A stretch of 61,593 nucleotides of DNA, counting the filler. It is 8 parts of 8 records of this genome, joined end to end, with 100 filler letters (N's around TTAATTAATTAA, not from the genome) between each part and the next. Parts side by side here need not be neighbours in the genome. Positions count along the whole stretch, not along the records: positions 10,099 to 15,197 come from SRR31147125_126350; 7 more parts are not named here. The stretch is one strand, 5' to 3'. Below are positions 4,826-32,520 of this stretch, piece by piece. The stretch's first letter is position 1; every line of letters starts with the position of its first letter. The notes below the pieces were generated by a model that did no database searches, was not told where the DNA came from, and was given only the letters and a program-made list of their open reading frames with translations. The translations under genes and the position numbers were made by a program.

Positions 4826-7800
4826 TCAGAGGGGCAAAATATGCTTTTCGTTTTTACTGGAATGCGACCCTTTAAATATTTTCCCGGTTCTGCCGTCAAT
4901 GGAGACCTCGTCTCCAAAGGAAATCCGTACTCCGGCAAACTCACAATAGTGCCGAGATTCATATACCCGCATCTCACGGCATCCCACAACACAGGTTTTC
5001 TCCAGACGCACCGCCACAACAGATGCGTGGGAAGTCTGCCCTCCCCTGGAGGTGAGAAGGCCGTCGGCCATATCGATCACTTTGATATCTTCCGGCACCG
5101 TATCCTGCCGGATCAAGATCAGCGGTCGGTTTTTTGCATCTTTATTTTTAAATTTCATCCGCATCTCACGGATCTGGTGTTGGGAAAATACGGCGATGCC
5201 GGAAAGGGCGGAGCCGGACACCCCGATACCGTTTCCTAGAAATGCCCGGGAGAGGGCCGGAGTTTTTTTAAACACATCGAACTGTTCCTTCTTTTTGATG
5301 GTAATCATGTCCCGGGTCTGAAGCAAATAGAGATGCTCCGGTTCCGGCCCTTCAAAGGTAAATTCCATCTCCTGTGGATTCCATCGTTGTTGATAGACCA
5401 GCTCCCTGGCAATGGCAAGCAGGCGATCATAGATCTTTGGAAATCGCTTCTCAAGGCTCTTTTCCACATCCCTGCCATCCAATTCCGCCTGTTCCACGGA
5501 AATGGGATGGCTCGTCACCAATCCCGCCACAATATCTTCTCCCTGATCGCCGTAGGCATAATCACCCCACAGCGCCACCCGCTGAACTTTCCGGTAGGGA
5601 TGAGAGGTAAAAAGAACCCCTGAACCGGAGCGGCTGCTTTTGTTTCCAAAGACCATGGTCTGGACAATCACTGCGGTTCCCCAAGCATCGGAGAGATCCA
5701 TCACCTTGCGGTAATCCGCCGCTTTTACGTTGGCCCAGGAATCGAGCACCATCTCAATGGCCCCCAACAGTTGAAGCCATGGATCATCAGGGATCCTAAG
5801 CCCTTTGTTTCGAACCAGACGGCTGTAGTTCAGAGCCAACTCCCGCATTTGATCCGGAGTGAATTCCCACTTCAGTTTCACCTGATGCCGCTCTTTTGCT
5901 TCGTCCATCAATTGTTGAAAATCTTCTCTGTCCAGTTTCCCTGAAATCATGGCCCAGGATTGAAGAAAACGGCGGTAATTGTCCCAGATCAGATAGGAAT
6001 TGCCCTGGAGGGCCACATGGGCATCGATCAGCGCTTCATTCAACCCCACATTGTGGATGGTGGCCATCATTCCGGGCATGGAGAGGGCGGAACCGCTCCG
6101 GACGGAGAGTAACAGCGGATTGTCCGGCATACCGTCCTCCGGTAATCCGAATTTTTGCCCGGTAATGCCCTCGATCCGGCCGAGGGACTCCCGGATGCGC
6201 GCCATGAATTCATCTTTTGCCTTATCAAAGAAGTAGACCACCTCTCGGCATCGAAAAATCTCCGTCGTGATGATAAACGCCGGCGGCACCGGCAGGTTAT
6301 CCTGGGTCATGGTGAGTAGGTTGAACCCCTTGTTGCTGAGATGAATGGGATTGTGGGTGTGGGGATTGCCGCCGCTGAGCATGGAGATGCTCATTTCAGG
6401 ATTGTAGGTCATGAGCAGATCCAGATGCGTTTCACTCAAAAGACTCTTTTGCTGCTCCAGAGTCCGGATGATCCTTGTAATAAAGGCGTCCAGATGCTGC
6501 AACCCGAATGTCGAGGCAATCAGATCCCGGAAAAACGCTTCTGACAGCTGATGCAGCGTATTTACCGGATCCCCATCTTTCCAAAAGGTCTTATTTCCGG
6601 GGATCAGATTCTCCTTGCCGATACGGGGGATGATGATGGAAAGATTGTTCTGGTGGATGTTGGTGTAATAGGCATAGATGACATCCTTGACGCCTTCGGA
6701 AAATCCCCTGAAGATATCCATGTACTGGGTGTAGGAAAAGCGCCGGATTTTAAGGGAGCTGTCCAGCAGGGACATGTAGGTATTGAGACGTCTGGAGGAA
6801 ATACCGTCGATGGCCAGCGCCCTGAGGTAGAGTTTCAGGCAATCGGCAATGCGAAACACCGTGGCCTGGGTGATAAAGTTGAGATTGACCTCTTGGGACA
6901 ATTTTTCCAGATAAAGTGCCGCCAGATTCTCAAGGCGAAAGGTAAGACTCAGACTGTCGAATTTTCGCTCCTGGTAACTGCCGTACATGGAGGGGATATC
7001 CACGGCAATATGACGTTTGTGATGAATTGCCTCCCGGGCGGTGAATGTTTCCTCGGAGAGAATGATCTTCTTGAGGCGCTCCAGTTGTGTCAGCAGGGCA
7101 TCGAGACAGTGCGTGGTATTGAGGCATCGACATATACTGCCGATGCCGGTGCCCCCCCTTTTAGACGGGAATGTTCACCCTCTTTTTCAACGTACTCCGC
7201 TTCGGCACCTTCGAGAGTCTCCATCAGCGCCTGCATGCCGACAAATCCCTCCCGCTCGGCCTGGGCAAACTCCGCCTTTAAATCCTGAAAACTCAAATTG
7301 TACTTTTGATGGACCAGGCGATACATCTGCACCATGAGATCAAACCGTCGACGCTCCCGGACGGAGATATCCTTTTGCGCGTTGAGATATTGCTTGAGCT
7401 CCTTTCTGCTCCAGGTCAGAGTATCGTCCATGGAGGTGATCCTAAGCTCTCGGGCAATTTTCCCGGTAAGCGCATGGAGTTCATCGACAAACGGCCCCCG
7501 GGTCTCGATTTCTTCAAAGGTGTCATGGGGGACATACCCGGACAGCGGCCCTTTATTCCGCGTTTTCCAGAAAGTGAAAATCTCATGCATAAACTCCACC
7601 ACCAGGTTTGAGCTCTCCACATGGGCCTGCTTTCTCAGAAAGTGGATCAATCGATCTTTCCGTTTATGCACCTCATCCAGTTCGGTGGAGACGTACCGAA
7701 GCTCTCCTTCGGCACCGATCTGATTGAAAAACACCGGCATCAACTTGGTGAACTGCTTCACCAGATTGTACACCGGTTCAATGGGATGATTGAGCAGGTG

Positions 7801-9333
7801 AGTGATGTCCCGCTGAAAGAGATCGGTATCCTTGACGCAGGTGCCTGCCAGCTTGATGTTAATGATCAGGGCGGAAAAAAGCGTCGCGCACCATTTGGGT
7901 TCCTGGGTGATGAGATGGAGCCAGACCCGAATGTTGGTGAGATGAGCCGGATTGGTGATGGGCTGCCACTCTTCGTCCACTCCGGCCACGGATGCCTGCT
8001 GAAATCCAAACCGTACCGCTTCCCACAAAAACGTCTCCACCATCCGGCTGTTGCCCCGCTTGAACACCTCGTCTCCCAGTACCTGAATACAGTTGAGGGA
8101 GGTATGGGGATATTTACCTACATTGGCTTCCAGGAATTTAAAGGTGGTCAGAAGAAAATTTTCGATCTCTTCAAATCCCTGACGCCGAATCAGGTTCACC
8201 AGGCTGTGATTGATCTCCCGCAGGGTCTCTTCGTGAATCAAATAGAGGCCCTGTGTATCCATGATCTTGAATAGAAAACGAAGCTTGAGATTTTCAGCGT
8301 CCTGGGAGGCAAGGTTTTGGGGGAGCACACATTGCTCCGTATTAGAAGAAGAAGCACTGTCGACCAGGGTCTCATTTTGGGTTGATTTGTCTGCCGGTAG
8401 GTCTGCTGAGGGTGAAAGCGGCGACGCCATGTGCAAATCCGTCAGCGCATTTGTCACTGCTTTGTATTGTCTCACCATATCCAGATGGCAAGGAAGTGAG
8501 AGCATTTTCTTGAGGGATTGGGCGCTGTCTGTTTTCGTTTTAGCTTCATCCAGGACATCCAACTGCATTTGAACGGATTGGTGACTCACTTCCCGGATGA
8601 GCGTTTCCACCTTATCCATTCCATTCAACGGCCGTCTGCTTTCTTCACTCTCAGAAGGAGATTCGGGCTGCTTGTCGAGCCACTCCAAAGGATCCTCTTC
8701 ACCCAGCCAATAGCGATACGTCCGACTGAGAACGGCAGCCGTCAAGTTTGCAAGCGGCCGATAATCAAAATCACATGTCTCCCTTTCCAGCTTGACCATT
8801 CGAGTGATCATTTTTCGCATGGCATGATGCCCCTGAACAATGTGCATCATGGCTCTTTTCTCTTCTTTTTCATCACCGCTGAGCGAGATCAATTGAATGA
8901 AAAAGGTATTGAACACCGATTGGTACCGGGTGAGATCCTCCGGCCGTAAAAAAGAAATCAATTTGTCCAACCATGCAAAGAGCGCTTCTACCACTTGGGA
9001 GAGGACTGGATCGTTCTTTTCCGATTCAGACAAGGCCTTCAGAAAGAGTTCGGAAAATAATGTAAATGCCTCAGGGCCCTGGGGATGTTTATTGTAGAGA
9101 TGGCAATTTTTCAGAAGATAGCTTCGGAGCTGCGGAAGTAAAATCGACCAATTTCGGAAGGGGTGACAAAGCTCGAGAAGCAGTGACTCAAGATTGTTAC
9201 GGATGCCCCGGTATTTCGACACCACATCCAGAAGCAGGTGATATTCGGGTGGGATGGTGACCTGCTGTGCGGTTTCAAGCAGATTGGCCCTCAAGGCATC
9301 GGATTCGATCAATTCTGATGGGAAGGCATTCAT
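4826..9333 (-). CDS. Large PPDK-like protein (~1000-aa N-terminal region + ATP-grasp + phospho-His swivel domain, no C-terminal pyruvate-binding barrel), frameshifted near 7155
   Basis: LLSVRSGSALSMPGMM, QTMVFGN, QGEDIVAG, LYLLQTR, RGGQTSHASVVA. The second ORF's frame is open upstream (NTTHCLDALLTQLERLKK...) to a poly-C run that joins ORF 7090-9333. Confidence 0.85.
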
Positions 9334-10098: not shown

Positions 10099-10911
10099 GA
10101 TAATCTGCCGATCAGGTAGTTTCCCCTTACTGTAATGTTCCAAAAATTCCTTGAAAGTGGTTTCACTCTCACCGGAAAAAATAAAATCCACGGCATCACT
10201 CAAGGCGGCAATGCCTTCAGCCATCTCAGCCTCGCAATTGGAGCCGCCAAGCAGGGTCAATGTCTCCGGCCGAGCTTTTTTCACGGCGTTTATTACCGCG
10301 ATACAGCAGTTGGTTTGTTCCCAATTACTGGATAGCAGCACCATTTTACAGTTGAGGGCCTCAATGGCGCAAGAAACAGCCATTACAAATGAATGACAAG
10401 TCCGTTCTATTTCAAAAAAATATTCCAGATCAAATTCGGTAATGTCATAATATTTATATTCAAAATCATTGACGGCGTCCTGCGAACCGAATACCGATCG
10501 GGCCGGGTCCAAACAGAGCTCCGGGGATTTTCCCAAGGGAGGCAACCCATAAGCGCTACGGGCAAACAAGCGCTCTCCAAGCATACGGAACGGTTGGCCG
10601 TAGCTGACGCTTTCATAGGTTTTAATACCGATAATACTCGCTAAAAGCTGGTTCAGGCACAACACCTCGGTTTTGAAGCCCATTTGAGCGGCAATGGATT
10701 GCAGAATGTAGGGCCCCATGACAGGGGTTCGGGTGGTGACAAACGGAGGAACCAGCAGCAGGATTTCCGGATCATGGATGACGGCGTGAATTCGGGTGCA
10801 GATCTCATGGGTGTCTATCAAGTCTATCATAGGGGCCATATCAGAAGAGAAGCGTTTCATGGGTAAGGCAAAGTCCATTGGGCTGCAATCTTTTTGTATT
10901 AATACGGCCAA
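10099..10911 (-). CDS. B12-binding N-terminal part of a RiPP-maturation radical SAM (class B C-methyltransferase-like), 3'-partial
   Basis: ILLLVPPF..P.MGPYILQS, LGERLFARSAYG, LLGGSNCEAEMAEGI, DFIFSGESE are typical of cobalamin-dependent RiPP rSAM enzymes. The CxxxCxxC motif would lie beyond the contig end. Start codon uncertain. Confidence 0.75.
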
Positions 10912-11171
10912 TGCATTCGAAAGAGAGTTTGTCTGATATTTATATTTGGGAGGTTTTCGACAGATTCGTCTTCGAGAATTGCCATCACTATTTTTAACAA
11001 GTTTGTTCGATACTGTGTTTTCAGTGAAAATATCACTGTGACCTCAGGTCAGAAAAAAGGGAATGAGCTATCACTACAAGAATGTTTAAAATTTGGCGAT
11101 TATTTTTCCTTCCGGCTGACGCTGGGATTTTCGGTACAACTGAAGCGGTTCACCCTTGATTCGCATCGACG

Positions 11172-11211
11172 CCCCTGTCAATCAACGTTATCAAACCTTG
11201 ATCGACAGGGG
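11172..11211 (-). terminator. Stem-loop downstream of the precursor gene
   Basis: CCCCTGTCAATCAA-N12-TTGATCGACAGGGG, 13 of 14 positions complementary; no clear U tract. Confidence 0.5.
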
Positions 11212-11320
11212 GGATGATAAAGATACAGTCAAAAGTGTCAAAAGAACGAATCTTCCCGAACTGTTTACAAGCTACCATTCAATGCCTTTGAAGCCTCGCT
11301 TTGGATTGCACCATTTGCGA

Positions 11321-11830
11321 TCAGCAAGTACTTAAGACCAATTCGGCCTCAGGCGCATCTTTGAATTTAAACTCGGTGAGTAAATCCGTTTCCATGGAAA
11401 AATAGGGCATCACCACGACCATGGAATCACACTCGTCGCGCTTGAACGGAACGTCGACATTCATCGGACCGGCATCCTCCCGTTCCGACACTTTTCGGCT
11501 GAGCTTTCCGCTCCGGTCAATAAGGCTTTCGGTAACGGACAAAGGCCCCTCGACATATTGCACTTCCTCTTTGTCATTGTGAAAATTAACAGTGGGCCAA
11601 CGGGTTCCATAGGGGTCCAGTTTGACAACGGCATCTTCGGGGATTGTCAGTCCGACAAAATTTTCCAGCAGCTGCCGCGGCTCATTTTCAAAAAAATCGC
11701 GCACCTGTTCGTTGGCGATACAAGAGGCCATCAGCAGCATATACCGTTCGGTTACTTTTTGCAGCTTGGATTCGGGGTGAGATTTTTCGAGGATTTCCAA
11801 AATGTCGTTCAGTTCCAGATTTTCATTCAT
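11321..11830 (-). CDS. Putative NHLP-like RiPP precursor (169 aa) ending ...AELVLSTC
   Basis: AAGGAGGA RBS before the ATG at 11830. MASCIANEQVRDFFENEPRQLLENFVGLTIPEDAVVKL and VVVMPY resemble the nitrile-hydratase-like leader pattern. Lies between ycaO and the rSAM gene. Confidence 0.6.
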   Translation of the reverse strand: MNENLELNDILEILEKSHPESKLQKVTERYMLLMASCIANEQVRDFFENEPRQLLENFVGLTIPEDAVVKLDPYGTRWPTVNFHNDKEEVQYVEGPLSVTESLIDRSGKLSRKVSEREDAGPMNVDVPFKRDECDSMVVVMPYFSMETDLLTEFKFKDAPEAELVLSTC

Positions 11831-11934
11831 AACGTCCTCCTTAAAAAAAGCTTTTAATGTTTTTCCGGGAAATTCCCGAAGGTGATGAAACGTTGAATAA
11901 AAGACCCTCGTGCCCATTCGAAAATGGTTCAGGG

Positions 11935-14193
11935 TCAAATGAACAACCCTATGGGGTTCAGCTCACTCTCTTTCAGTTTTCTCTCCAGCAGCCCCATTTC
12001 AAAAGGAACATCATAGAGCCGGCCCGGTCCGAACCGGGGCCAGAAATGGCGCATACCCGGAACAATGACTTTGACCACGGGCAAACCGATATCCGGCCGG
12101 GTCAGATCCAGCACAAGCGTTTCCAGGCCCCTTTTTTCGGCCTTTTCAATGCAGAATCGGACACTGTCCGTGATTGTGGGCGGACACAACGATTTAAACG
12201 CTTCCATACGCTTTAACGGAAGGTCGGGATTCGGCGTCAGATACGGCATCTTTTCAAATTCGGCATCATTGAGCCAGCTCACAAAATTCTCATCCCGGGT
12301 CAAATATCGCCCTTTGGCACGCTGGGCTTCGGGCACTGCGGCAATGGGCAGAATCTGATTCAACTCCACCAATGCCCGCTCCAGGGCAATGGCGGCATCC
12401 ACATGGGCGCCGAAACCGAAAACGATGTTTTCCGGTCCGCCGTCCATTCGATGGGACAGCGCACCAAAGGTCGGGATGCCCAGATCTGCGGTCAAATCCA
12501 GGACATGGAGGCTTCGCTTCATGGCGTGGTAAAACTCCGAAAGCCGGGTAATGTAAGGGTCGTTCCAGCTTGAAAGATCGACACCGGGCTTTCTCAACCG
12601 ATTGTACCACCACTGGGCCACACTATCCCGCTCCACCAACTCCAAGAAGCCCTGAAGTATTGCCTCTTCAATGGAGTTTCCGGCAGCGCAGCCGTTGCTG
12701 TCTGGAAATGCAAACGGGTGGTGCTCGTCCTCAGCCGGATATTGTGCATAGCAAAAGGAGGCAGGCAGGTATTTGAAGGACTTTTGGGTCATGGAGTATA
12801 CCGGTGCCCACGCCATTGTTCTTGACACGTCAAACCGTATCGGCACCAACGCGTAAAAGTGTGACAAATCGTGATTGAGGGCCAGGCGGTTGTCAAACTG
12901 GCTGTGGCTGTAATTCATGCAGGCATTGGGATGAATCGCCTGGCTGCCCAACTCATTGAAACTCGAACGGATGAAGTGCTCATCCCCTTGATATGCCAGA
13001 CTGTAGCGTTCGATGGCCTCACACAGCGCACCGGTCTTGGCCTGTTCCAAGGTTTTGCCTTTGCCGCCGCTGGCGCTGCGGATATGTTGATTGAGCCAGA
13101 AGAGATTTTTGCTTCGAAACGCCAGATTGCGACCGGAAGAAAAATTGTAAACCGGTGCGCCGTTCATGCGATGATAGGGTTTCAACTCCTGAACCACGCC
13201 GGTGATGGGGCTCACATGACAAGAGAATTTTCTTAGGGTCTCCTCCGGAGATGTTTCCCGATATCCGCCTAATCTCCCTTTGGTCGGGGTGGTGTTGTCA
13301 CTCAAAACGATGGGTGTCAATTCGATGCCGGCCCGGTGGCCGCACACCGGGCATTGCGGCCGTTTGACAAGTTCATGGGACTCGGTTTTCAAGGCGTGGG
13401 TGTCAAAACTCACCAGCCGCCCCTCCAGGCGATCATTTTTACCGTGATACAACCACTTGACGATTTCAAGAGCGGCCAGATCAGCCGCGGTGCGAAAGGT
13501 CTGGGCAAGGCCGGAAAGAGGCTTGGGCGGCCTTTGGGTGGTATTTTTTTGGGTTTGAAAAAACGAGTTGATGGGGAAATTGATTTCCAGACGCTGATGC
13601 AAACACTCCCAACATCCGGTTTTTCCGGGGACAAATATGGGACCGAGCCACACGTCCACCCCCACGGGCTTGACCAGCATCCACGGCTGTTCTTTTTCAG
13701 CAGCACGGCGATTCAACGCCGCCAGGTCAACGTGGGCATAGTCGTCGGTAATCACCAGTGTCAAATCCCCTTTCTCACTGATGGATATTCCCAGGGATTC
13801 AAAGGTGTCCCGAAAGATCGGCATCGGTTCGATCCCGACAAACTCAAGTGAGATGCTTGTCGATTGCAACATCTCCGACAACCGCGTCACATCCATGCCC
13901 TGGGCATTCCAATAGGCGCATGCCGCCTCGGGAATGTGGGGGGTTGCCTCGGTAAGATACCCTTTGCTCTCCAGCACCTGAACCCCCATGAAAACATCCA
14001 TGGGGGTCATGCTCTCTTTCAGCGCTTGCGCCAACGCATCCATACTCAGGCCGTGTCCATGAATCTTCGAGAGTACCTGCACATAACGCGCTCCCGTAAG
14101 AACAACACTATCTGCCTCCGATGATAGAATCACGGTTTGCCCGTCAATAAATTCAGCGTGATAACAGTATTTGAGTTTTGGATTCTTGAGCAT
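11935..14193 (-). CDS. Fused RRE-E1-like-YcaO cyclodehydratase (TOMM type)
   Basis: N-terminal winged-helix/RRE-like region; GPIFVPGKTGCWECL and KRPQCPVCG; YcaO motifs GKGKT..QA..ALCEAIERYS and SNGCAAGNSIEEAILQGFLELVERD; ends ELNPIGLFI. Confidence 0.93.
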   Translation of the reverse strand: MLKNPKLKYCYHAEFIDGQTVILSSEADSVVLTGARYVQVLSKIHGHGLSMDALAQALKESMTPMDVFMGVQVLESKGYLTEATPHIPEAACAYWNAQGMDVTRLSEMLQSTSISLEFVGIEPMPIFRDTFESLGISISEKGDLTLVITDDYAHVDLAALNRRAAEKEQPWMLVKPVGVDVWLGPIFVPGKTGCWECLHQRLEINFPINSFFQTQKNTTQRPPKPLSGLAQTFRTAADLAALEIVKWLYHGKNDRLEGRLVSFDTHALKTESHELVKRPQCPVCGHRAGIELTPIVLSDNTTPTKGRLGGYRETSPEETLRKFSCHVSPITGVVQELKPYHRMNGAPVYNFSSGRNLAFRSKNLFWLNQHIRSASGGKGKTLEQAKTGALCEAIERYSLAYQGDEHFIRSSFNELGSQAIHPNACMNYSHSQFDNRLALNHDLSHFYALVPIRFDVSRTMAWAPVYSMTQKSFKYLPASFCYAQYPAEDEHHPFAFPDSNGCAAGNSIEEAILQGFLELVERDSVAQWWYNRLRKPGVDLSSWNDPYITRLSEFYHAMKRSLHVLDLTADLGIPTFGALSHRMDGGPENIVFGFGAHVDAAIALERALVELNQILPIAAVPEAQRAKGRYLTRDENFVSWLNDAEFEKMPYLTPNPDLPLKRMEAFKSLCPPTITDSVRFCIEKAEKRGLETLVLDLTRPDIGLPVVKVIVPGMRHFWPRFGPGRLYDVPFEMGLLERKLKESELNPIGLFI

Positions 14194-14294
14194 AACAAAG
14201 TCGTTTCAAATCGTTTTGGACCGGCTTCGGATTCCCGGATACAATTCATGAAATTCCAGAAGGGTTCCGAATCCTCATTCTGTTCAACAGATAG

Positions 14295-14361
14295 ACGTTT
14301 CAATACAGAATTGGCTATATACCATACTAGAGTTGGCTATATATCATACTAATTGAAACGT
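14295..14361. promoter_or_regulatory. Tandem 19-bp direct repeats flanked by a 10-bp inverted repeat, upstream of ycaO
   Basis: TTGGCTATATAYCATACTA at 14311 and 14333; ACGTTTCAAT (14295) and ATTGAAACGT (14352). Confidence 0.5.
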
Positions 14362-14548
14362 GTTAATAAAAATATCTCTTAACTTAAAATTATCCGATAC
14401 GCCCTTTAGCGCCTCATGACAATACAACCATTTTTTACACGACCTTCCCCACTTCATACCCCAGCCCCCATGGGCCGGATATCGATACTGATCCGGGCCC
14501 AAACCAAAACGAGCGATAAACATGCCGAATTGTACATAACAACAAATA

Positions 14549-15145
14549 TCAGGATTTTCTAAAATCCGGATAAAGAATCGCTCTGCATTCCGGGCAGATC
14601 CCATGGCTGAAATCCGCATCGGAAAACTTGTGAATATACACTTCCAACTGCTGCCATTGGCCTTGATCGTCCCGGATTTTTTTGCAACTGGAACAAATGG
14701 GCAGCAAACCGCTGAGGGTTTTGACTTTTTTCAGTGCCTGTTGAAGCTCCAGCAGGGTCCGGCTCAAGGTGATATGGGTTCTCACCCGGGCCTTGACGGT
14801 ATCCGGATTAAAGGGTTTGGTGATATAATCCACCGCCCCCAGTGCAAACCCTTTGGCCTCATCCATCACCTCTGAAACCGCAGTGATGAAAATCACGGGA
14901 ATACTCTTGGTGGCGTCATTCTGTTTCAGCCGTTTACACACTTCATATCCATCGATGTCGGGCATTAGAATATCCAACAGTATCAGATCCGGCTGAGGAT
15001 CGGCAATCGCCTTGTCCAGGGTTGATTTGCCGTTTTTCACCGGAGTGATATGATAGTCGTGCTTCAACAGCGCCACCAGGACACTCAAATTTTCCGGCAT
15101 ATCATCGGCAATTAAAATTCTGGATTTGGAGGAATGGGGATTCAT
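14549..15145 (-). CDS. Response regulator (REC + C-terminal CxxC...HxxCxxC putative Zn module)
   Basis: ILIADD, LILLDILMP, DYITKP; LPICSSCKKIRD...FSHGICPEC; GGAG before the ATG at 15145. Confidence 0.88.
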   Translation of the reverse strand: MNPHSSKSRILIADDMPENLSVLVALLKHDYHITPVKNGKSTLDKAIADPQPDLILLDILMPDIDGYEVCKRLKQNDATKSIPVIFITAVSEVMDEAKGFALGAVDYITKPFNPDTVKARVRTHITLSRTLLELQQALKKVKTLSGLLPICSSCKKIRDDQGQWQQLEVYIHKFSDADFSHGICPECRAILYPDFRKS

Positions 15146-15197
15146 ACGGTTGTCTCCAGTAAAATTCGGTATAACTGCCATGGGCAGACCATGATTA

Positions 15198-26752: not shown

Positions 26753-27598
26753 TTACTTTTTAGCAGGAACAGCTGTTACTAATCGTACTACATCATCATT
26801 ATTTTTAATCCAACCAAAGGTTACATCAATCTTACGTCCATTTGCTCCCGTAATTCGTATTATTTGGTTATATTTTGTTCCGAACTGATTTGCACCAATT
26901 TTAGTAGCTTTTTGGGGATTAAATCTAATTTGTTTCGCCAAATCAGAGGCATTCTCAGTTGTAAAACCTAAAGCTTGTTCAAACCATTTGGCTTTGTCTT
27001 TCCCAATTGCATGGCTTTTGTTCAGTATATACCTTGCTAGCTTATCATCAACGCTTTTCGCTGTTAACTCTGCAATTTCCTCTATTGCTTCTTTTGTAAG
27101 CTTCTTCACCAACCATTGCCCACCTTTTCGAATCAGAATAAGCCCTCCTCCAGTAAAAACTACTTCAACAATGTCGTAAATAATATTATTTTGCTCAATC
27201 CCCGCGTTCGAGTATAAATATGCAAGACGAGAGTCATACACATCATGGTCCCAATCATAATATCTATTTCGGATATAGCCACCTTTACGATAGTTCCCTC
27301 CCGGTTTTTCTTCCCCAACTACTTCCAACCCCTCTGTATTTCCATCTTCTCCTTTTTTTCCGTCAGGAGATAAATAAATGTTTTTATCATCAGAATCATC
27401 ATGATAAATAATATTACCTGTAGGATCTATAACCGTTTTTGTAATTGAACCGGCCCACATCCCTGTTGGGTCAATCATTGATATAGGATTATTACCAGCA
27501 TATGTGTATGGACTATCATATTGTCCAAGTGGATCCACCGAGTGCCACCGTGCTAGTGCCGGGTCATAGAATCGGGCCCCATAATCATACCAACTAAT
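26753..27598 (-). pseudogene. Orphan Rhs C-terminal cassette with DUF6883-like toxin domain
   Basis: Frame opens after a TAA at [21 protein letters not shown]...[12 protein letters not shown] with no ATG at its 5' end. CT reads [25 protein letters not shown]...RLVTAVP. Confidence 0.8.
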
Positions 27599-27621
27599 TT
27601 ATTACCACCTCTGGCAGCCTT

Positions 27622-27819
27622 CTAATAATTCAGAGAACGCATTTTTGTCGTAACTAAAAAATTGTTCGTCGTAACAAAATCATCAAATTTTGATTTTACT
27701 ACGATGGATGTGACCACCAAACCTTTTCTTTCAAAGAACAAATATGTTGATATTTCATTTCTTAAGAAACAAAATATCCATATTAAAATCAAAAGTAATA
27801 CTTTAAGTATTATAACCAT
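27622..27819 (-). CDS. Small membrane-anchored ORF or gene remnant between cassettes
   Basis: 65 aa with a hydrophobic N-terminal helix; no recognisable family. Confidence 0.3.
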   Translation of the reverse strand: MVIILKVLLLILIWIFCFLRNEISTYLFFERKGLVVTSIVVKSKFDDFVTTNNFLVTTKMRSLNY

Positions 27820-27827
27820 GTCATTTT

Positions 27828-27856
27828 AAAAAGCCCAGCAAACCTGCCGGGCTTTT
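27828..27856 (-). terminator. Intrinsic terminator after the cognate immunity gene
   Basis: AAAAAGCCCAGCA-AACC-TGCCGGGCTTTT. Confidence 0.75.
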
Positions 27857-27877
27857 ATTGTTTATTAAAATAATCTG

Positions 27878-28471
27878 CTATTCAATTAGCGTTTTGATTC
27901 TATCATCGGTATAATTCTTTAAAACACAACTTTCTGTATTAATAGCATTTAAAATATTCTTGATAGCTTCATTAAGCTCTTCATAATATACGCCAAAGCT
28001 TCCTGTATGATGAAAATATAAAACAAAATTATTTGCAGGAGAGTATAGCATGATGCTGTAAGGAGCCTTATGTGATAAAATACATTTTAAAGCAATTGGT
28101 AAAAATATATCCCATTTTTTGCAACGACAAAGTCCAGTATATTCAGGATTTATCTCGTTCTCAACAAGCATTCTTAAATAATCAGCCGTTTCTTCGCTCT
28201 TATTCTCAGTCGAATAATCATAACTATCTTTATTAACATCCCATGTGTCCATGCAAAAATCTCCCCAACTTGCCATAGGATTTGGTTGCCCAATTACAAA
28301 ATCGGGAAGAAAACTTTTAAATAAAGAATAGAGAAGCATCATTATTTCTGTAATAGAAGTCTCCTTATCCATATATAATTCAAACTTATACCCATCGCTA
28401 TCCGGTAAGTAATCAAAGTTTAACCATTCAAATGGCTCAAACTCAGAATCAAATTTCTCTATTATTTTCAT
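27878..28471 (-). CDS. Putative immunity protein for the main Rhs toxin
   Basis: AT-rich 197-aa ORF starting 2 nt after the Rhs stop codon. Confidence 0.7.
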   Translation of the reverse strand: MKIIEKFDSEFEPFEWLNFDYLPDSDGYKFELYMDKETSITEIMMLLYSLFKSFLPDFVIGQPNPMASWGDFCMDTWDVNKDSYDYSTENKSEETADYLRMLVENEINPEYTGLCRCKKWDIFLPIALKCILSHKAPYSIMLYSPANNFVLYFHHTGSFGVYYEELNEAIKNILNAINTESCVLKNYTDDRIKTLIE

Positions 28472-28473
28472 TG

Positions 28474-31400
28474 CTATTTTACAGTTGATAATTGTCCCCA
28501 AGAAATTGCTTTACCAACATTTCCTTTGTGTTTGTTTAATATGAAATTACCAAATTCATCGGCATCTTTATACCATTTTAGTCCTTGTTTTGACTCCTTG
28601 AAGACTTTAAACTTACTACCTCCATGTCCGGCTCTATCTAAAGCCCACCATAATCCGTCCGACTTACTTTTATAAAGAGTTCCAAATGTTTTGTGATATT
28701 TAACGGCAGATGAACCTTGTTTGGTAAGTTTCCATAAACCACCTAGATTCTTAATTTTTCCAGGTGTTGGAGCAACTCCCATGATGGGTGAAGGTCCTGT
28801 TGCATTCCCATCAAAATCATATTTCCAACCATCAATATTTCCACCAGTCCATAAAAATTTTAAAAGTCCATTAGAACCCCTAAAATCTTGTTTCGAAGCC
28901 ATTGCGGTAAAAGGGAGAGCATCAGGCATTTCACCTACTGCTGTAGCTCCTCCTACTGTTGAAGAAAATGCTCCACCGTCCCCATTATTTGAACCTGCTG
29001 CTCCATCCAATGCATCGTAAACATTTGACATGCTGGAATTTCCACTACTTACATGTTTCAACATGGATTGATAATTAACAATATCATCACCTGTTACTTT
29101 GTAACCAGTAACGTTGCCATCATCATCATAGATGTATTCAACATCCATCCCTGTAGGGTCAATATTTACAAGTGGGTTATTATTAAAGAATGCATAAGGG
29201 CTAATTTCAACGTAAGAATCTGCATGTGGGTCAATACTATGAGTACGCCCCAGGCTTGGGTCATAGAATCGTGCCCCGTAATCGTACCAGTTCAAATCAT
29301 ACTCATCCTGCAACTCTTTTCCGTTGTAGAGGTATTTCGTAGCACTCGGGTCTGTGTTGTACCATTGTGCCATTTCCATACCAAAAGGGTAGTAATCTTT
29401 GTATTGCAATGGTTCCGCCTTTGTATCCACATCCTTAAATGATACCCTGGTGTTACCCAGGTGGTCTTTTAAATCGTACTGGTATTCCCATGTGCCACTG
29501 TTGTCAATTACGCGGCCTTCACCTGTCAGTATCACTTCTTGTCCGTCAATTTTAAGAACGCTGCCCTGGTAATAAGTATTTGCCCCAGCGGCTCTTTTCT
29601 TCAACTTATTTCCTAAAGCATCGTAAATATAAGTAATCGTACCATCGTCTGCAACTATTTCTTCGGGCAGGTTCAGGTAGTTGTAATCGATTGAACCTTT
29701 ACCCGGCACGTTGATTGCATTCCCATTATCATCGTATGAATATTCTGAGGAAGAATCATACTCGTATTCTATATCATGATATGCATTCTCACCATAATCC
29801 CTGACTTTTTCGAGCCGGTTACTTTCACTCTCATAAAAATAAGTAAGTTCATCAATATAGCCGTACACCGGAGTATCCCCACTTACTTTTCTGTTTCCTT
29901 TCCTGTTTAGGGTATGTAAATTCCCGTTTTTATAGTAAGTATACTGGGTATTAAAATTCCCTGTATTCACATCTGAACCCTCCGGAGTATATTCCTTGTA
30001 ATATGCATTCCCCAAACGGTTCAGTGCATCGTAATCAAAGGTGTATTCCAATTTATTAGCCGGAGCAATACAATCGTTTTCATCGAGCAGTGCATGTTTC
30101 CAGTTCATGCCCTGTATATTCCCGTTACTGAAGTAGTCAAGCGACTGTGCAAAGAGTTTGTTGCGAGTCGTATCGCTAAAGTTGTTTACCTGTGTAAGCC
30201 ATCCCCTAACATCGTATAGGTAATCAATATCCTGTATGTAACTGGTATCGTTGGCACAGTGTAACTTTTGTAACGTCAGCTGTCCCAACTCGTTGTAATC
30301 GTTTTGGGCAAGTACAACCCTTCCGTTTTCAGTATCGCCGGTAATTTCCTGTTCCACTTTTTCCAGGCGTCCTGCATGGTCGTAGGTATAGAATTTGGTA
30401 ATTTTATGGTCTACCTGTCCGCTGTAATCTTCAACACTTTGCAAGAGGTTGCCTGCAAAATCGTAGGAGTTCTGTATCTCAGCATCAATAAAGCCCGATG
30501 GGTTATCAATATTGGTTTGTATTACCCTGTACTTATCATCATAAAAAGTATAGGTTTTATGGTAATCTTCGTCGTTGTCAAGTAGTAAAGCTTTTTGCCA
30601 GGTCACTTGTCCTTTAACAGCAGTATTTTTAGTTGCCAGGTTACAAAGCGAATTGGAAGGATAAGTATCGTAGGCAGTTTGTGTTATCACCTCTTCAAAA
30701 TCACAGTCTTCCGGAAATATGATAGTATTTTCAAAAAGGTTACAAAGCCAGGAAATTCCCCATCCTCTTCTCATTCTTAACCATCCGGTTTCAACCGGAC
30801 GATTAAAGTCATCGTACTTTGTGAAAAGATATCTCCTGCTATCTTCATCTCTTGTATTTCCATCCTGTACCAGTACCATCCTGTCGCGTGCATCGTAAAC
30901 CATGAATACATATTCAGCCCCAGGTAGTTGTTTGGTTACCATGCGTTTGCGTTTGTCGTATTTATAGTAGTAACATAAACCTTTTACTTCAGAGCTGGCT
31001 GGAGTATAGGAACTACCAGTCATTTCTTCGGTAGCCTCAGGAGGAAGCACATATCTTAATAGTCCAAAATCATCGTAAACGTAATATGTTTTGGCAGAAC
31101 CGCCTGCCACCTTCAGTATAACCTGCCCCAGTTTGTCTTTATATTCTTCCGTTATTTTACCGCTGGCATCCGTAGTTTTGGTGCGGTAAAGCTCTCCTGT
31201 TTCATAATCGTTGCCTCTAACCAAGCCGTTGGAATCATCCACAGTCCATATGGTCACTGCGCCGGTATTTGTCCCGTATTCGTAGGTAATTGTCCCACCT
31301 TCCGGGTCTTTTACCGAAAGTACCCTGTTTAGTGGTGAACTTTCGTAAGTAGTCAGGGAATGGTCAGGATTGGAACCACCATGGTAGGTCATCCCATCCA

Positions 31401-32520
31401 CCGGAGAGCCGTTTACCCCGCTGTAGAAAGCATCAATATTGTTGCCAATATCGTTTACAAAGGCACCTCTTCCGTGTACAGAGGAAGGAATATAATTCAT
31501 GTTTTTTCTTCCGAAACTATCGTATTCCACACCTGTCACCAGGTCGTTAAAGAAGTAACTCTGGTTCACCGCCACGGTTTGTTCAGGTCGTCCCAACCCG
31601 TCGTAATACTGTACCACAGCCCCTTGTTCTTCCAGCGGCAGGCTGGTTAAAGCCGCTTCGTTGGTCACCTCTTTTACCGGGCTGTAACTAAGCACATAGT
31701 TTTTGTCAGAAGGTGTTTGTATGGTTTCATCAGCCTGTACCGGCACCGAAACAAAATAACTGTTATGGGGAATATATTCTCCTGTTTCGGGGTCTTCAAT
31801 TGAATAAGCCGACCTTGCCCTGTAGCGTGTAGAACGGGAAGGGCTGCCAACTGCAAAAACAGAGTCCAGGGAAGTCTGGAAAGGCAGCCCTTTGTAACTG
31901 TCGTACCACTCCCAGTGCCCAAAAGCACCATATCTTCCTTTATGGACAGTTAAAGTGTTATTATTTTCTATCAGCGAAACTGGGTGTGCAATAATGGAAT
32001 CAGAAGGCAGGTATATTAAAACACTGTCAGTCCATGCCTGTTGTCCCATATCATCGCTTACTCCTCTGCGGAACCATGTACTTTTTCCGGTAAATCCGGC
32101 AGGTAATTTTCGCTGTTGGTATTGTCTATGGTTATCCATCCCAGCAACTCATCGTCCATCATCTCCCACTGGTAGGTATAGGGGGTCAGGCCTTCACTTG
32201 CGGGCTCTTCACTAACAAGTTCCTGTGGCAACTGTCCCGGGGCAAGGGTATCGCTGCAACAGATTAAACCGGGATTTAAAGGATTGCCTGTTTGTATAAA
32301 TACAGTATTTGTTTCCTCTTGGCATTGACCGGAACTTACCCTTACCCTGTAATAAACAGAAGTATCAACAGTAGTAACAAGCATTGATGCAGTTGCCCCC
32401 TGGGGCTCAAAATTAGTACCATCCAAAGATTCCAGCCATTCGTATTCATAACTTCCATCACCTCCTGAAGGTGGTGGGTCTAAAGAAAGAGTTACAAGGG
32501 TTCCCGGAGAGACAACCTGG
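28474..32520 (-). CDS. Rhs/YD-repeat polymorphic toxin (Ig-like repeats + DUF6443-like region + Rhs core + CT toxin), 5'-partial, frameshifted near 32150
   Basis: QYYDGLGRP, YD repeats, LKDHLGNTRV, YLYNGKELQDE...[10 protein letters not shown]...NNPLVNIDPTG, followed by an AT-rich CT. Confidence 0.93.

Follow-up and report, generated by a model that had tools for sequence, protein, structure and literature searches.

Genes and features of the locus

We analyzed a window of 61,593 nucleotides (filler included), composed of eight contigs joined by N spacers (GC content range 0.39–0.56), and focused on a candidate locus for a RiPP (ribosomally synthesized, post-translationally modified peptide). 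Its three visible genes encode a YcaO cyclodehydratase fused to a RiPP recognition element (RRE) and an E1 domain, a 169-amino-acid (aa) putative substrate protein of the nitrile hydratase leader peptide (NHLP) clan, and a B12 radical S-adenosylmethionine enzyme (rSAM). The three genes lie on one 5.1-kb contig (SRR31147125_126350, positions 10099–15197), so that the other contigs do not tell the host. All three genes are on the minus strand, co-oriented and at the coordinates that the original prediction for this DNA had given. A public contig of 14.9 kb with the same DNA, possibly the source, extends about 9.8 kb past position 10099; thus, the rSAM gene is cut by the assembly.

11935..14193, minus strand: RRE-E1-YcaO fused cyclodehydratase of the LynD/TruD type, 752 aa (TIGR03882, TIGR03604, LynD alignment)
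11321..11830, minus strand: folded NHLP-clan substrate protein of 169 aa, with a beta-sheet insert and a three-residue tail (homologue search, TIGR03793 family matches, AlphaFold2)
11324..11332, minus strand: Ser167-Thr168-Cys169, predicted core and putative azoline sites (tail composition)
11363..11380, minus strand: L151-x4-F156, candidate RRE-binding motif (homologue conservation and PMC12455567)
11835..11842, minus strand: Shine-Dalgarno sequence AAGGAGGA of the substrate gene (sequence)
10099..10830, minus strand: TIGR03975 B12 radical-SAM C-methyltransferase, first 244 aa (the part that binds cobalamin), truncated at the contig end (profile and alignment)
11165..11241, minus strand: hairpin (arms 11165–11189 and 11194–11218) overlapping a sigma-70-like TTGACA-16-TATCAT, upstream of the rSAM gene (consensus match)

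The cyclodehydratase and the radical-SAM enzyme

The proposed RRE-E1-YcaO fusion was borne out by profile searches, in which the 752-aa protein scored 147 bits with TIGR03882 (cut-off 36.9) and 276 bits with TIGR03604 (cut-off 219). Its N-terminus comprises a winged helix and a ThiF-like segment, and it aligned nearly end to end with LynD (E 5e-175), including the CEAIERYS, DSNG and ELVERD segments. The ATP-binding segments are intact, as in azoline-type E1-YcaO proteins of thiazole/oxazole-modified microcin (TOMM) systems.

The rSAM fragment matched positions 1–210 of TIGR03975 (E 6.5e-33) with 114 bits, set against a whole-protein cut-off of 281.85, and it ends before the Fe-S cysteine motif. 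Its full-length relatives passed this model with 381–471 bits (437 for the enzyme of genome G505), and the fragment is 56–61% identical to the full-length enzymes of the related cassettes described below. The Fe-S motif reads CX4CX2C in the two closest full-length relatives and CX7CX2C in five others aligned. The GG and GE motifs of the cobalamin site, described in PMC9204698, are present in the fragment. The identification of this gene product as the N-terminus of a cobalamin-binding rSAM was thus upheld by the TIGR03975 match, but its start was not, as ATG 10830 is the most likely start rather than TTG 10911. Among the TIGRFAM models proposed as a check, those for YcaO matched above cut-off and that for rSAM matched the fragment below its whole-protein cut-off. 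TIGR03793 and TIGR03795 did not match the putative precursor.

The substrate protein and its tail

The 169-aa open reading frame (ORF) is preceded by AGGAGG five bases upstream of its ATG and ends with ELVLSTC, in agreement with the strong ribosome-binding site and STC terminus noted originally. In the public contig, one extra A follows position 11842, which would break a longer 205-aa frame starting from TTG; therefore, the 169-aa start is right.

The protein alone had no sequence match in Pfam, NCBIfam or PDB, but a homologue search returned 39 matches among representatives at 50% identity. TIGR03793 (cut-off 50.9 bits) did not match the window protein; it gave 18.7 bits with the family member of locus L168, and weak matches with 23/37 family members at E ≤ 1 (best 8.8e-8). 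In addition, the family profile picked nitrile hydratase alpha and the NMR structure of MprE7. Judging from these sequence comparisons, we assign the 169-aa protein to a family of the NHLP clan that has no profile model. The idea of an NHLP-like precursor with a very short C-terminal core is supported, as the family has a conserved core and travels with YcaO and a TIGR03975 rSAM.

An AlphaFold2 model of the protein (mean pLDDT 90) predicted a short helix at the N-terminus, followed by three NHLP-like helices, then a beta-sheet insert and, at the C-terminus, two strands, with the body folded up to residue 167. Foldseek with this model returned nothing at E ≤ 0.001. In a fold search the best match was VIA (Z 5.1), and the proteusin structures 8tb1 and 9cjx matched over the N-terminal part (Z 3.9 and 3.7). 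These results do not show a new fold.

The tail was examined in 53 sequences, near-identical pairs included, after a repeat protein (P0014) and a fragment (P0023) had been dropped; the pattern used requires, by design, S, T, C or M at the first tail position. A four-residue motif resembling E-I-I-L followed by a short tail closed 52 of the 53 proteins, the remaining one, P0044, having no tail. The tail is three residues long in 40/52 members and six at most. Ser, Thr and Cys account for 135 of the 156 residues at the first three tail positions, compared with 11% in the remainder of the proteins; Cys is the last residue in 38/52 members, and I, V or L occupy the three positions preceding the tail. 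Gly-Gly within the last 30 residues occurred in a single member (1/52).

Ten residues ahead of the tail lies L-x4-F, whose L151 and F156 are invariant among six close homologues. The role of an L(X)4L strand in RRE binding and its tolerance of Phe are described in PMC12455567, and L151-x4-F156 is, by analogy, a candidate RRE-binding motif. A plasmid search with the precursor gave no match, and a locus scan with it as a query found nothing.

Related cassettes contain a kinase-STAND gene

Contexts of related loci were taken from the YcaO alignment, among the matches listed. Six cassettes were readable: L001 (Desulfobacter vibrioformis DSM 8776, genome G001), L079, L080, L158, L168 and L178. In all six, a tail protein gene, one or two genes of TIGR03975-like rSAMs (two in L079 and L178) and a Ser/Thr kinase gene stand side by side. 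YcaO is adjacent in five of them and on another contig in G002. The kinase-STAND layout is annotated in 5/6 cassettes, with GAF and SpoIIE domains in the two full-length proteins (L001, L168). This gene, found in every readable relative, is overlooked in the original prediction.

No protease, oxidase or exporter was recognized in the six cassettes, suggesting that the lack of these genes in the window, originally tied to truncation of the contig, probably does not result from it and is a trait of the whole class. Among ORFs of at least 70 aa in the complete cassettes L001, L168 and L178 (shorter ones were not screened), there was no other conserved substrate candidate. The 8.1-Mb genome G505 has a single YcaO, a single above-cut-off TIGR03975 protein and a single such STAND protein, all in the cassette, and no TIGR03605 match. 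Six further family members lie on contigs equal in length to that of a top YcaO match, which suggests co-location.

Of the cassette sensors, five were long enough for a tree; they grouped in one clade with support 0.996, and two paralogues outside the cassettes (of G001 and G002) fell outside it. The cassette sensors of G505 and G002 are 43–44% identical to that of G001, compared with 30–32% for the paralogues. The catalytic-loop motif H[RK]DINP and the Walker motifs are retained in the L001 and L168 kinases. With TIGR03903 (cut-off 706), the L001 kinase-STAND protein scored 144 bits and an Aquimarina relative 979 bits. A predicted complex of the L001 tail protein with residues 490–1320 of its sensor, run without alignments, scored 0.00 and was counted neither way.

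The tail-protein family is rare in the genomes surveyed. It was present in 1/401 genomes of the phylum of Desulfobacter vibrioformis, 2/301 of its order (one being a classical NHLP), 2/301 of the class of G002 and 3/72 of the family of G505. The assignment of the host to Desulfobacterota, with the family in one genome of 401, is unproven.

The design recurs with different tailoring enzymes

In a neighboring YcaO clade from Bacteroidota, the cassettes comprise FHA, a TIGR03903 kinase/cyclase, one to four tail proteins, YcaO and a KamA-like rSAM, and the tail proteins (180–400 aa) end with, e.g., EIILTSC or EEFIATCT. In a separate cyanobacterial clade, the neighbors of YcaO are an amidohydrolase, a protein of the kinase-STAND-GAF type and proteins whose last residues read Y-I-P-x-(T/S/A)-(C/S/T)-x. 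We listed 97 YcaO loci of at least 12 kb among the matches. A short-tail protein was found in 50 of them, of which 47 have a kinase-STAND gene and one an azoline oxidase. A C39 exporter was seen in none of the 67 kinase loci, versus 7 of the 30 others. Among the 75 listed loci with a tailoring enzyme, one type alone (oxygenase, KamA-like or B12-rSAM) was present in 73. This shows one recurring design, in which YcaO, a terminal tail and a STAND sensor are combined with swappable tailoring enzymes. Loss of the YcaO C-terminal PxP was rejected as a class marker, as the ends vary in all groups.

The cyanobacterial amidohydrolase has PtmU3 as its best PDB match, with D-x-H retained in 53/57 proteins and [ST]-D-[YFW]-P-H-x-D in 50/57. 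LynB7 and E0U9F9 of the same superfamily convert thiazoline-4-carboxylates to thiazoles (PMC10127204, PMC13154177), and PtmU3-like enzymes decarboxylate thiazoline-4-carboxylates through C5 (PMC10127204). The clade of E0U9F9 adjoins a thiazoline synthase without a known product in about 69% of cases (PMC13154177); the identity of E0U9F9 with the L180 amidohydrolase could not be confirmed.

Several of these loci encode further proteins of note. In Aquimarina L003, L004, L007 and L008, as well as in L029, L017 and L089, tail proteins of 190–620 aa, up to four in tandem and differing in their S/T/C tails, sit in FHA/TIGR03903/KamA-like cassettes, and those scanned have no Pfam or NCBIfam model. 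At least four unmodelled clusters of proteins (127–392 aa) ending with Y-I/L-P and four residues adjoin YcaO, a PtmU3-like amidohydrolase and a kinase-STAND-GAF gene in cyanobacterial loci such as L027, L036, L060, L078 and L015. A Cytophagales locus (L005:2406–12250) has three YcaO-like genes, an asparagine-synthetase-like gene and a gene of a 456-aa protein that ends with YPFTC and weakly matches TIGR03795. The cassette of L019/L084 (Parabeggiatoa, metagenome contig) encodes a B12-rSAM and an amidohydrolase, two YcaOs, an S8 protease, a kinase-STAND protein and a 116-aa NHLP protein ending with LPNCC. In L182:7962–14773 (Pseudoalteromonas piscicida), where the 18.8 kb read contain no YcaO, a TIGR03903-like kinase fusion precedes an ORF of 82 aa and a protein of 529 aa, the latter resembling the cluster-24 neighbors of some cyanobacterial cassettes only by its terminal ADFSF motif.

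Comparison with known systems

As the kinase-STAND gene is present in 6/6 relatives, we placed the locus in an NHLP-Burk-like design. NHLP-Burk, described by Haft et al. 2010 (PMC2887384), combines precursors in tandem that end in Cys with a large Ser/Thr kinase and lacks a transporter, and two annotated Burkholderia plasmid loci display this layout. The locus analyzed here shares with it an NHLP-clan protein that ends in Cys (STC) without Gly-Gly, a fused TIGR03882-TIGR03604 cyclodehydratase and the lack of a dedicated transporter, with C39 absent from all listed kinase loci. The related cassettes share also the large kinase-STAND neighbor, and the Bacteroidota relatives the order FHA, TIGR03903, precursors, YcaO. 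In contrast to the tandem 115-aa pair of NHLP-Burk, there is here a single protein of 160–245 aa; a tandem or fused pair was found neither in the window contig nor in the six cassettes, all with a single copy. Similarity between the proteins is limited to the N-terminal 54 columns (hhalign probability 52%), and the tail reads E-I-I-L-S-x-C here and Y-L-F-T-C-C there. TIGR03795 (cut-off 41 bits) did not match the window protein and matched 3/37 members (best E 0.022). The YcaO proteins are 31% identical and belong to different clades, a B12-rSAM is added here, and the sensor is of the kinase-STAND-GAF-PP2C type in the related cassettes, as opposed to kinase-cyclase-STAND. Since TIGR03795 fails, similarity stops after the helices, and the YcaOs are divergent and apart in the tree, the locus is not a member of NHLP-Burk. 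It appears to work like the NHLP-Burk design while standing outside its membership.

A Gly-Gly site followed by a long variable core, as in classical proteusins, was not found at the locus. The combination of YcaO, B12-rSAM and NHLP, which had been thought new, is already present in nostatin A (PMC11583998), where an NHLP leader, YcaO and a cobalamin-dependent C-methyltransferase (class B rSAM NstA) occur in one cluster. However, the nostatin A core has 30 residues, compared with three here, and the cluster involves azoles, dehydroamino acids and transporters; no oxidase or exporter was seen here. The enzyme architecture resembles that of MprC/MprE and LynD/TruD (PMC12455567; PDB 4v1t, 8tb1). 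MprE has a structured NHLP leader bound via helix 1 and the L(X)4L strand, a mode predicted here from sequence, but this leader has 81 aa, a Gly-Gly junction and an oxidase partner, whereas the protein studied here contains an inserted beta-sheet of about 60 residues and has its core at the very end. LynB7, BarH, DolJ and E0U9F9, which are oxidative decarboxylases of thiazoline-4-carboxylates, and Sven0515 carry out chemistry at thiazoline C5, as we propose for the tailoring slot. However, LynB7, BarH, DolJ and Sven0515 act in nonribosomal peptide synthetase pathways, and the E0U9F9 assay used a model compound; none of them, as far as the accessible text goes, was shown to act on a ribosomal protein tail.

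In an atlas search, all matches were below 0.9, and a two-chain TOMM cluster at 0.80 is only a lead. The accessible parts of PMC10352776, PMC10783134, PMC12322963 and 10.1101/2022.04.01.486688 do not describe the system, and that of Cox et al. 2015 (PMC4603692) adds no product for the NHLP-Burk design. A literature search that left most subscription journals outside returned nothing on the substrate family or a signaling role, and neither a product nor a function for the NHLP-Burk design.

Proposed pathway and alternatives

We propose a four-gene cassette, of which the window would show three genes. In the first step, which we consider very probable as a whole, the fused E1-YcaO enzyme would bind the folded 169-aa protein via its NHLP helices and the L-x4-F strand, and would carry out ATP-driven cyclodehydration of Ser-Thr-Cys to up to three adjacent azolines (−18 Da each), predicted to be an oxazoline, a methyloxazoline and a terminal thiazoline-4-carboxylate. 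In the second step, the B12 radical-SAM enzyme would likely act on the 169-aa protein and add a C-methyl group (+14 Da), filling the slot that, in the cyanobacterial version, would belong to a LynB7-like oxygenase dependent on O2 and, in that of Bacteroidota, to a KamA-like rSAM. Tentatively, C5 of the terminal ring may be chosen as the best candidate for the methylation site; methylation of thiazoline C5 by a class B rSAM is exemplified by Sven0515 of the watasemycin pathway (PMC5427693).

The methyl group might, instead, be placed on the aliphatic residues before the tail (E-I-I-L), as by PoyB/C or NstA on unactivated side chains. This alternative, which concerns the second step only, is in accord with the NCBIfam name of the rSAM family (RiPP C-methyltransferase), the proposed iterative alkylation of Pro by NstA (PMC11583998), the I/V/L residues at three pre-tail positions and the two rSAM paralogues in L079 and L178. 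We hold it to be somewhat unlikely, as the occurrence of one tailoring type alone in nearly all loci with such an enzyme looks as if the three types shared one site.

The third step is slightly favored in our view: the product, neither oxidized nor cut at Gly-Gly and with no dedicated transporter, would act on the cytoplasmic Ser/Thr kinase-STAND-GAF-PP2C protein, either in the form of the uncut substrate or as a small tri-azoline set free from it. Since a cleavage site and an exporter are lacking and the cytoplasmic sensor is invariant, our preferred reading is that the product signals to this sensor, whose gene is predicted within about 9.8 kb beyond the contig edge. The chances are evenly balanced for the complete scheme, in which the tail is converted to azolines with a thiazoline-carboxylate at the end, receives a C-methyl group and acts as a signal via the STAND protein. 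A narrower version, in which the uncleaved protein with its azoline-containing, methylated C-terminus is the ligand that switches the STAND kinase/phosphatase, is quite unlikely. In that version, the tail could reflect cofactor or oxygen status, because the last step would depend on B12 and anoxia here and on O2 and iron in cyanobacteria.

Several observations weigh against the signaling scheme. The sensor gene is absent from the window, and its presence at the locus is a prediction. Since 14/52 members end in a residue other than Cys, five of them having no Cys in the tail at all, a terminal thiazoline is not universal, and some cyanobacterial tails end with F, M, L or V. Tailoring is not strictly exclusive: L019 and L084 (apparently the same cassette) combine an amidohydrolase with a B12-rSAM, L079 and L178 have two rSAMs, and the canonical Burkholderia cassettes none. 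Among the listed kinase loci, eight contain an oxidase and 20/67 lack a recognized short-tail protein. Both the contingency counts and the correlation between the YcaO and sensor trees (rho 0.78) overstate independence, as the loci are related by descent. SagB-like matches occur elsewhere in the G001 and G497 genomes, and a housekeeping protease could release the tail. Finally, the placement of the L001 YcaO relative to the clade of the window protein is weak (support 0.61), and in another tree it falls outside a 13-member clade.

In one alternative, the locus is an ordinary small-molecule RiPP system: a protease encoded elsewhere would set free a methylated tri-azoline (about 300 Da), which would leave the cell by diffusion and serve as a metal chelator or antimicrobial, and the kinase-STAND gene would be only a cluster regulator. 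The tandem Aquimarina paralogues with tails TTT, TCT, TCS, TSC and TTC resemble a product blend, thiazoline-carboxylates are familiar as a chelator motif from the watasemycin and thiazostatin family, and so small a product may need no exporter. However, neither the six cassettes nor the two from Burkholderia showed a recognizable conserved protease, there is no cleavage motif, and the 160-residue body is conserved and predicted to be folded almost to its end, so that we consider this explanation unlikely. There is even less room for a kinase that acts as a biosynthetic enzyme, phosphorylating the tail Ser/Thr for elimination or for gating of cyclization, which would make the cassette a four-enzyme maturation pathway. 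The invariable linkage, the Ser/Thr-rich tail and the kinase and Walker motifs kept in L001 and L168 fit it, but the same proteins bear STAND, GAF and PP2C output modules, their homologues exist away from YcaO, and no lyase partner was recognized; we regard it as improbable. Least probable of all is that the 169-aa protein is an accessory and that the actual precursor is encoded in the missing DNA: the 169-aa protein has no Pfam or NCBIfam match and is predicted to be folded throughout, unlike a disordered core, but its N-terminus is of the NHLP clan, its S/T/C enrichment is restricted to the last three residues, and no other conserved candidate was seen in L001, L168 and L178.

With this locus, a substrate family without a profile model is defined, which has a core of three residues and a B12 tailoring enzyme; in the literature searched we found no report of ribosomal thiazoline-carboxylates being methylated by a B12 enzyme. 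Instead of an antibiotic, the product may be a signal used inside the cell. Should the tail turn out to be a STAND ligand, RiPP enzymology would be tied to cytoplasmic signal transduction; and if RiPP chemistry serves as an intracellular signaling modification, part of the widespread kinase-STAND-GAF sensor family would gain a ligand, and the NHLP-Burk class, across at least four phyla, a function. Related cassettes are carried by cultured hosts, including Desulfobacter vibrioformis DSM 8776, Aquimarina species and cyanobacteria.

Other features of the window

The gap of about 410–490 bp between the rSAM gene and that of the 169-aa protein holds the hairpin and the sigma-70-like site. The latter matches the consensus at 11 of 12 positions; the scan found seven sites, versus 3.6 ± 2.0 in shuffled sequences. 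Upstream of ycaO there are two tandem 22-nt repeats (91% identical, 14307–14350), a possible operator, flanked by a perfect 10-nt inverted pair (14295–14361). About 350 bp upstream of ycaO, a gene at 14549–15181 (minus strand) encodes a response regulator with a REC domain and a Cys-rich C-terminal segment, with no counterpart seen beside the related cassettes. The final ~30 bases of this contig are a high-depth repeat. On a different contig, consecutive ORFs of 747 and 725 aa (4826–9333, minus strand) resemble, on visual inspection, a pyruvate phosphate dikinase-like protein split in two, and a low-GC contig, unlike that of the locus in its GC content, carries RHS-like ORFs in pieces (26753–32426, minus strand).

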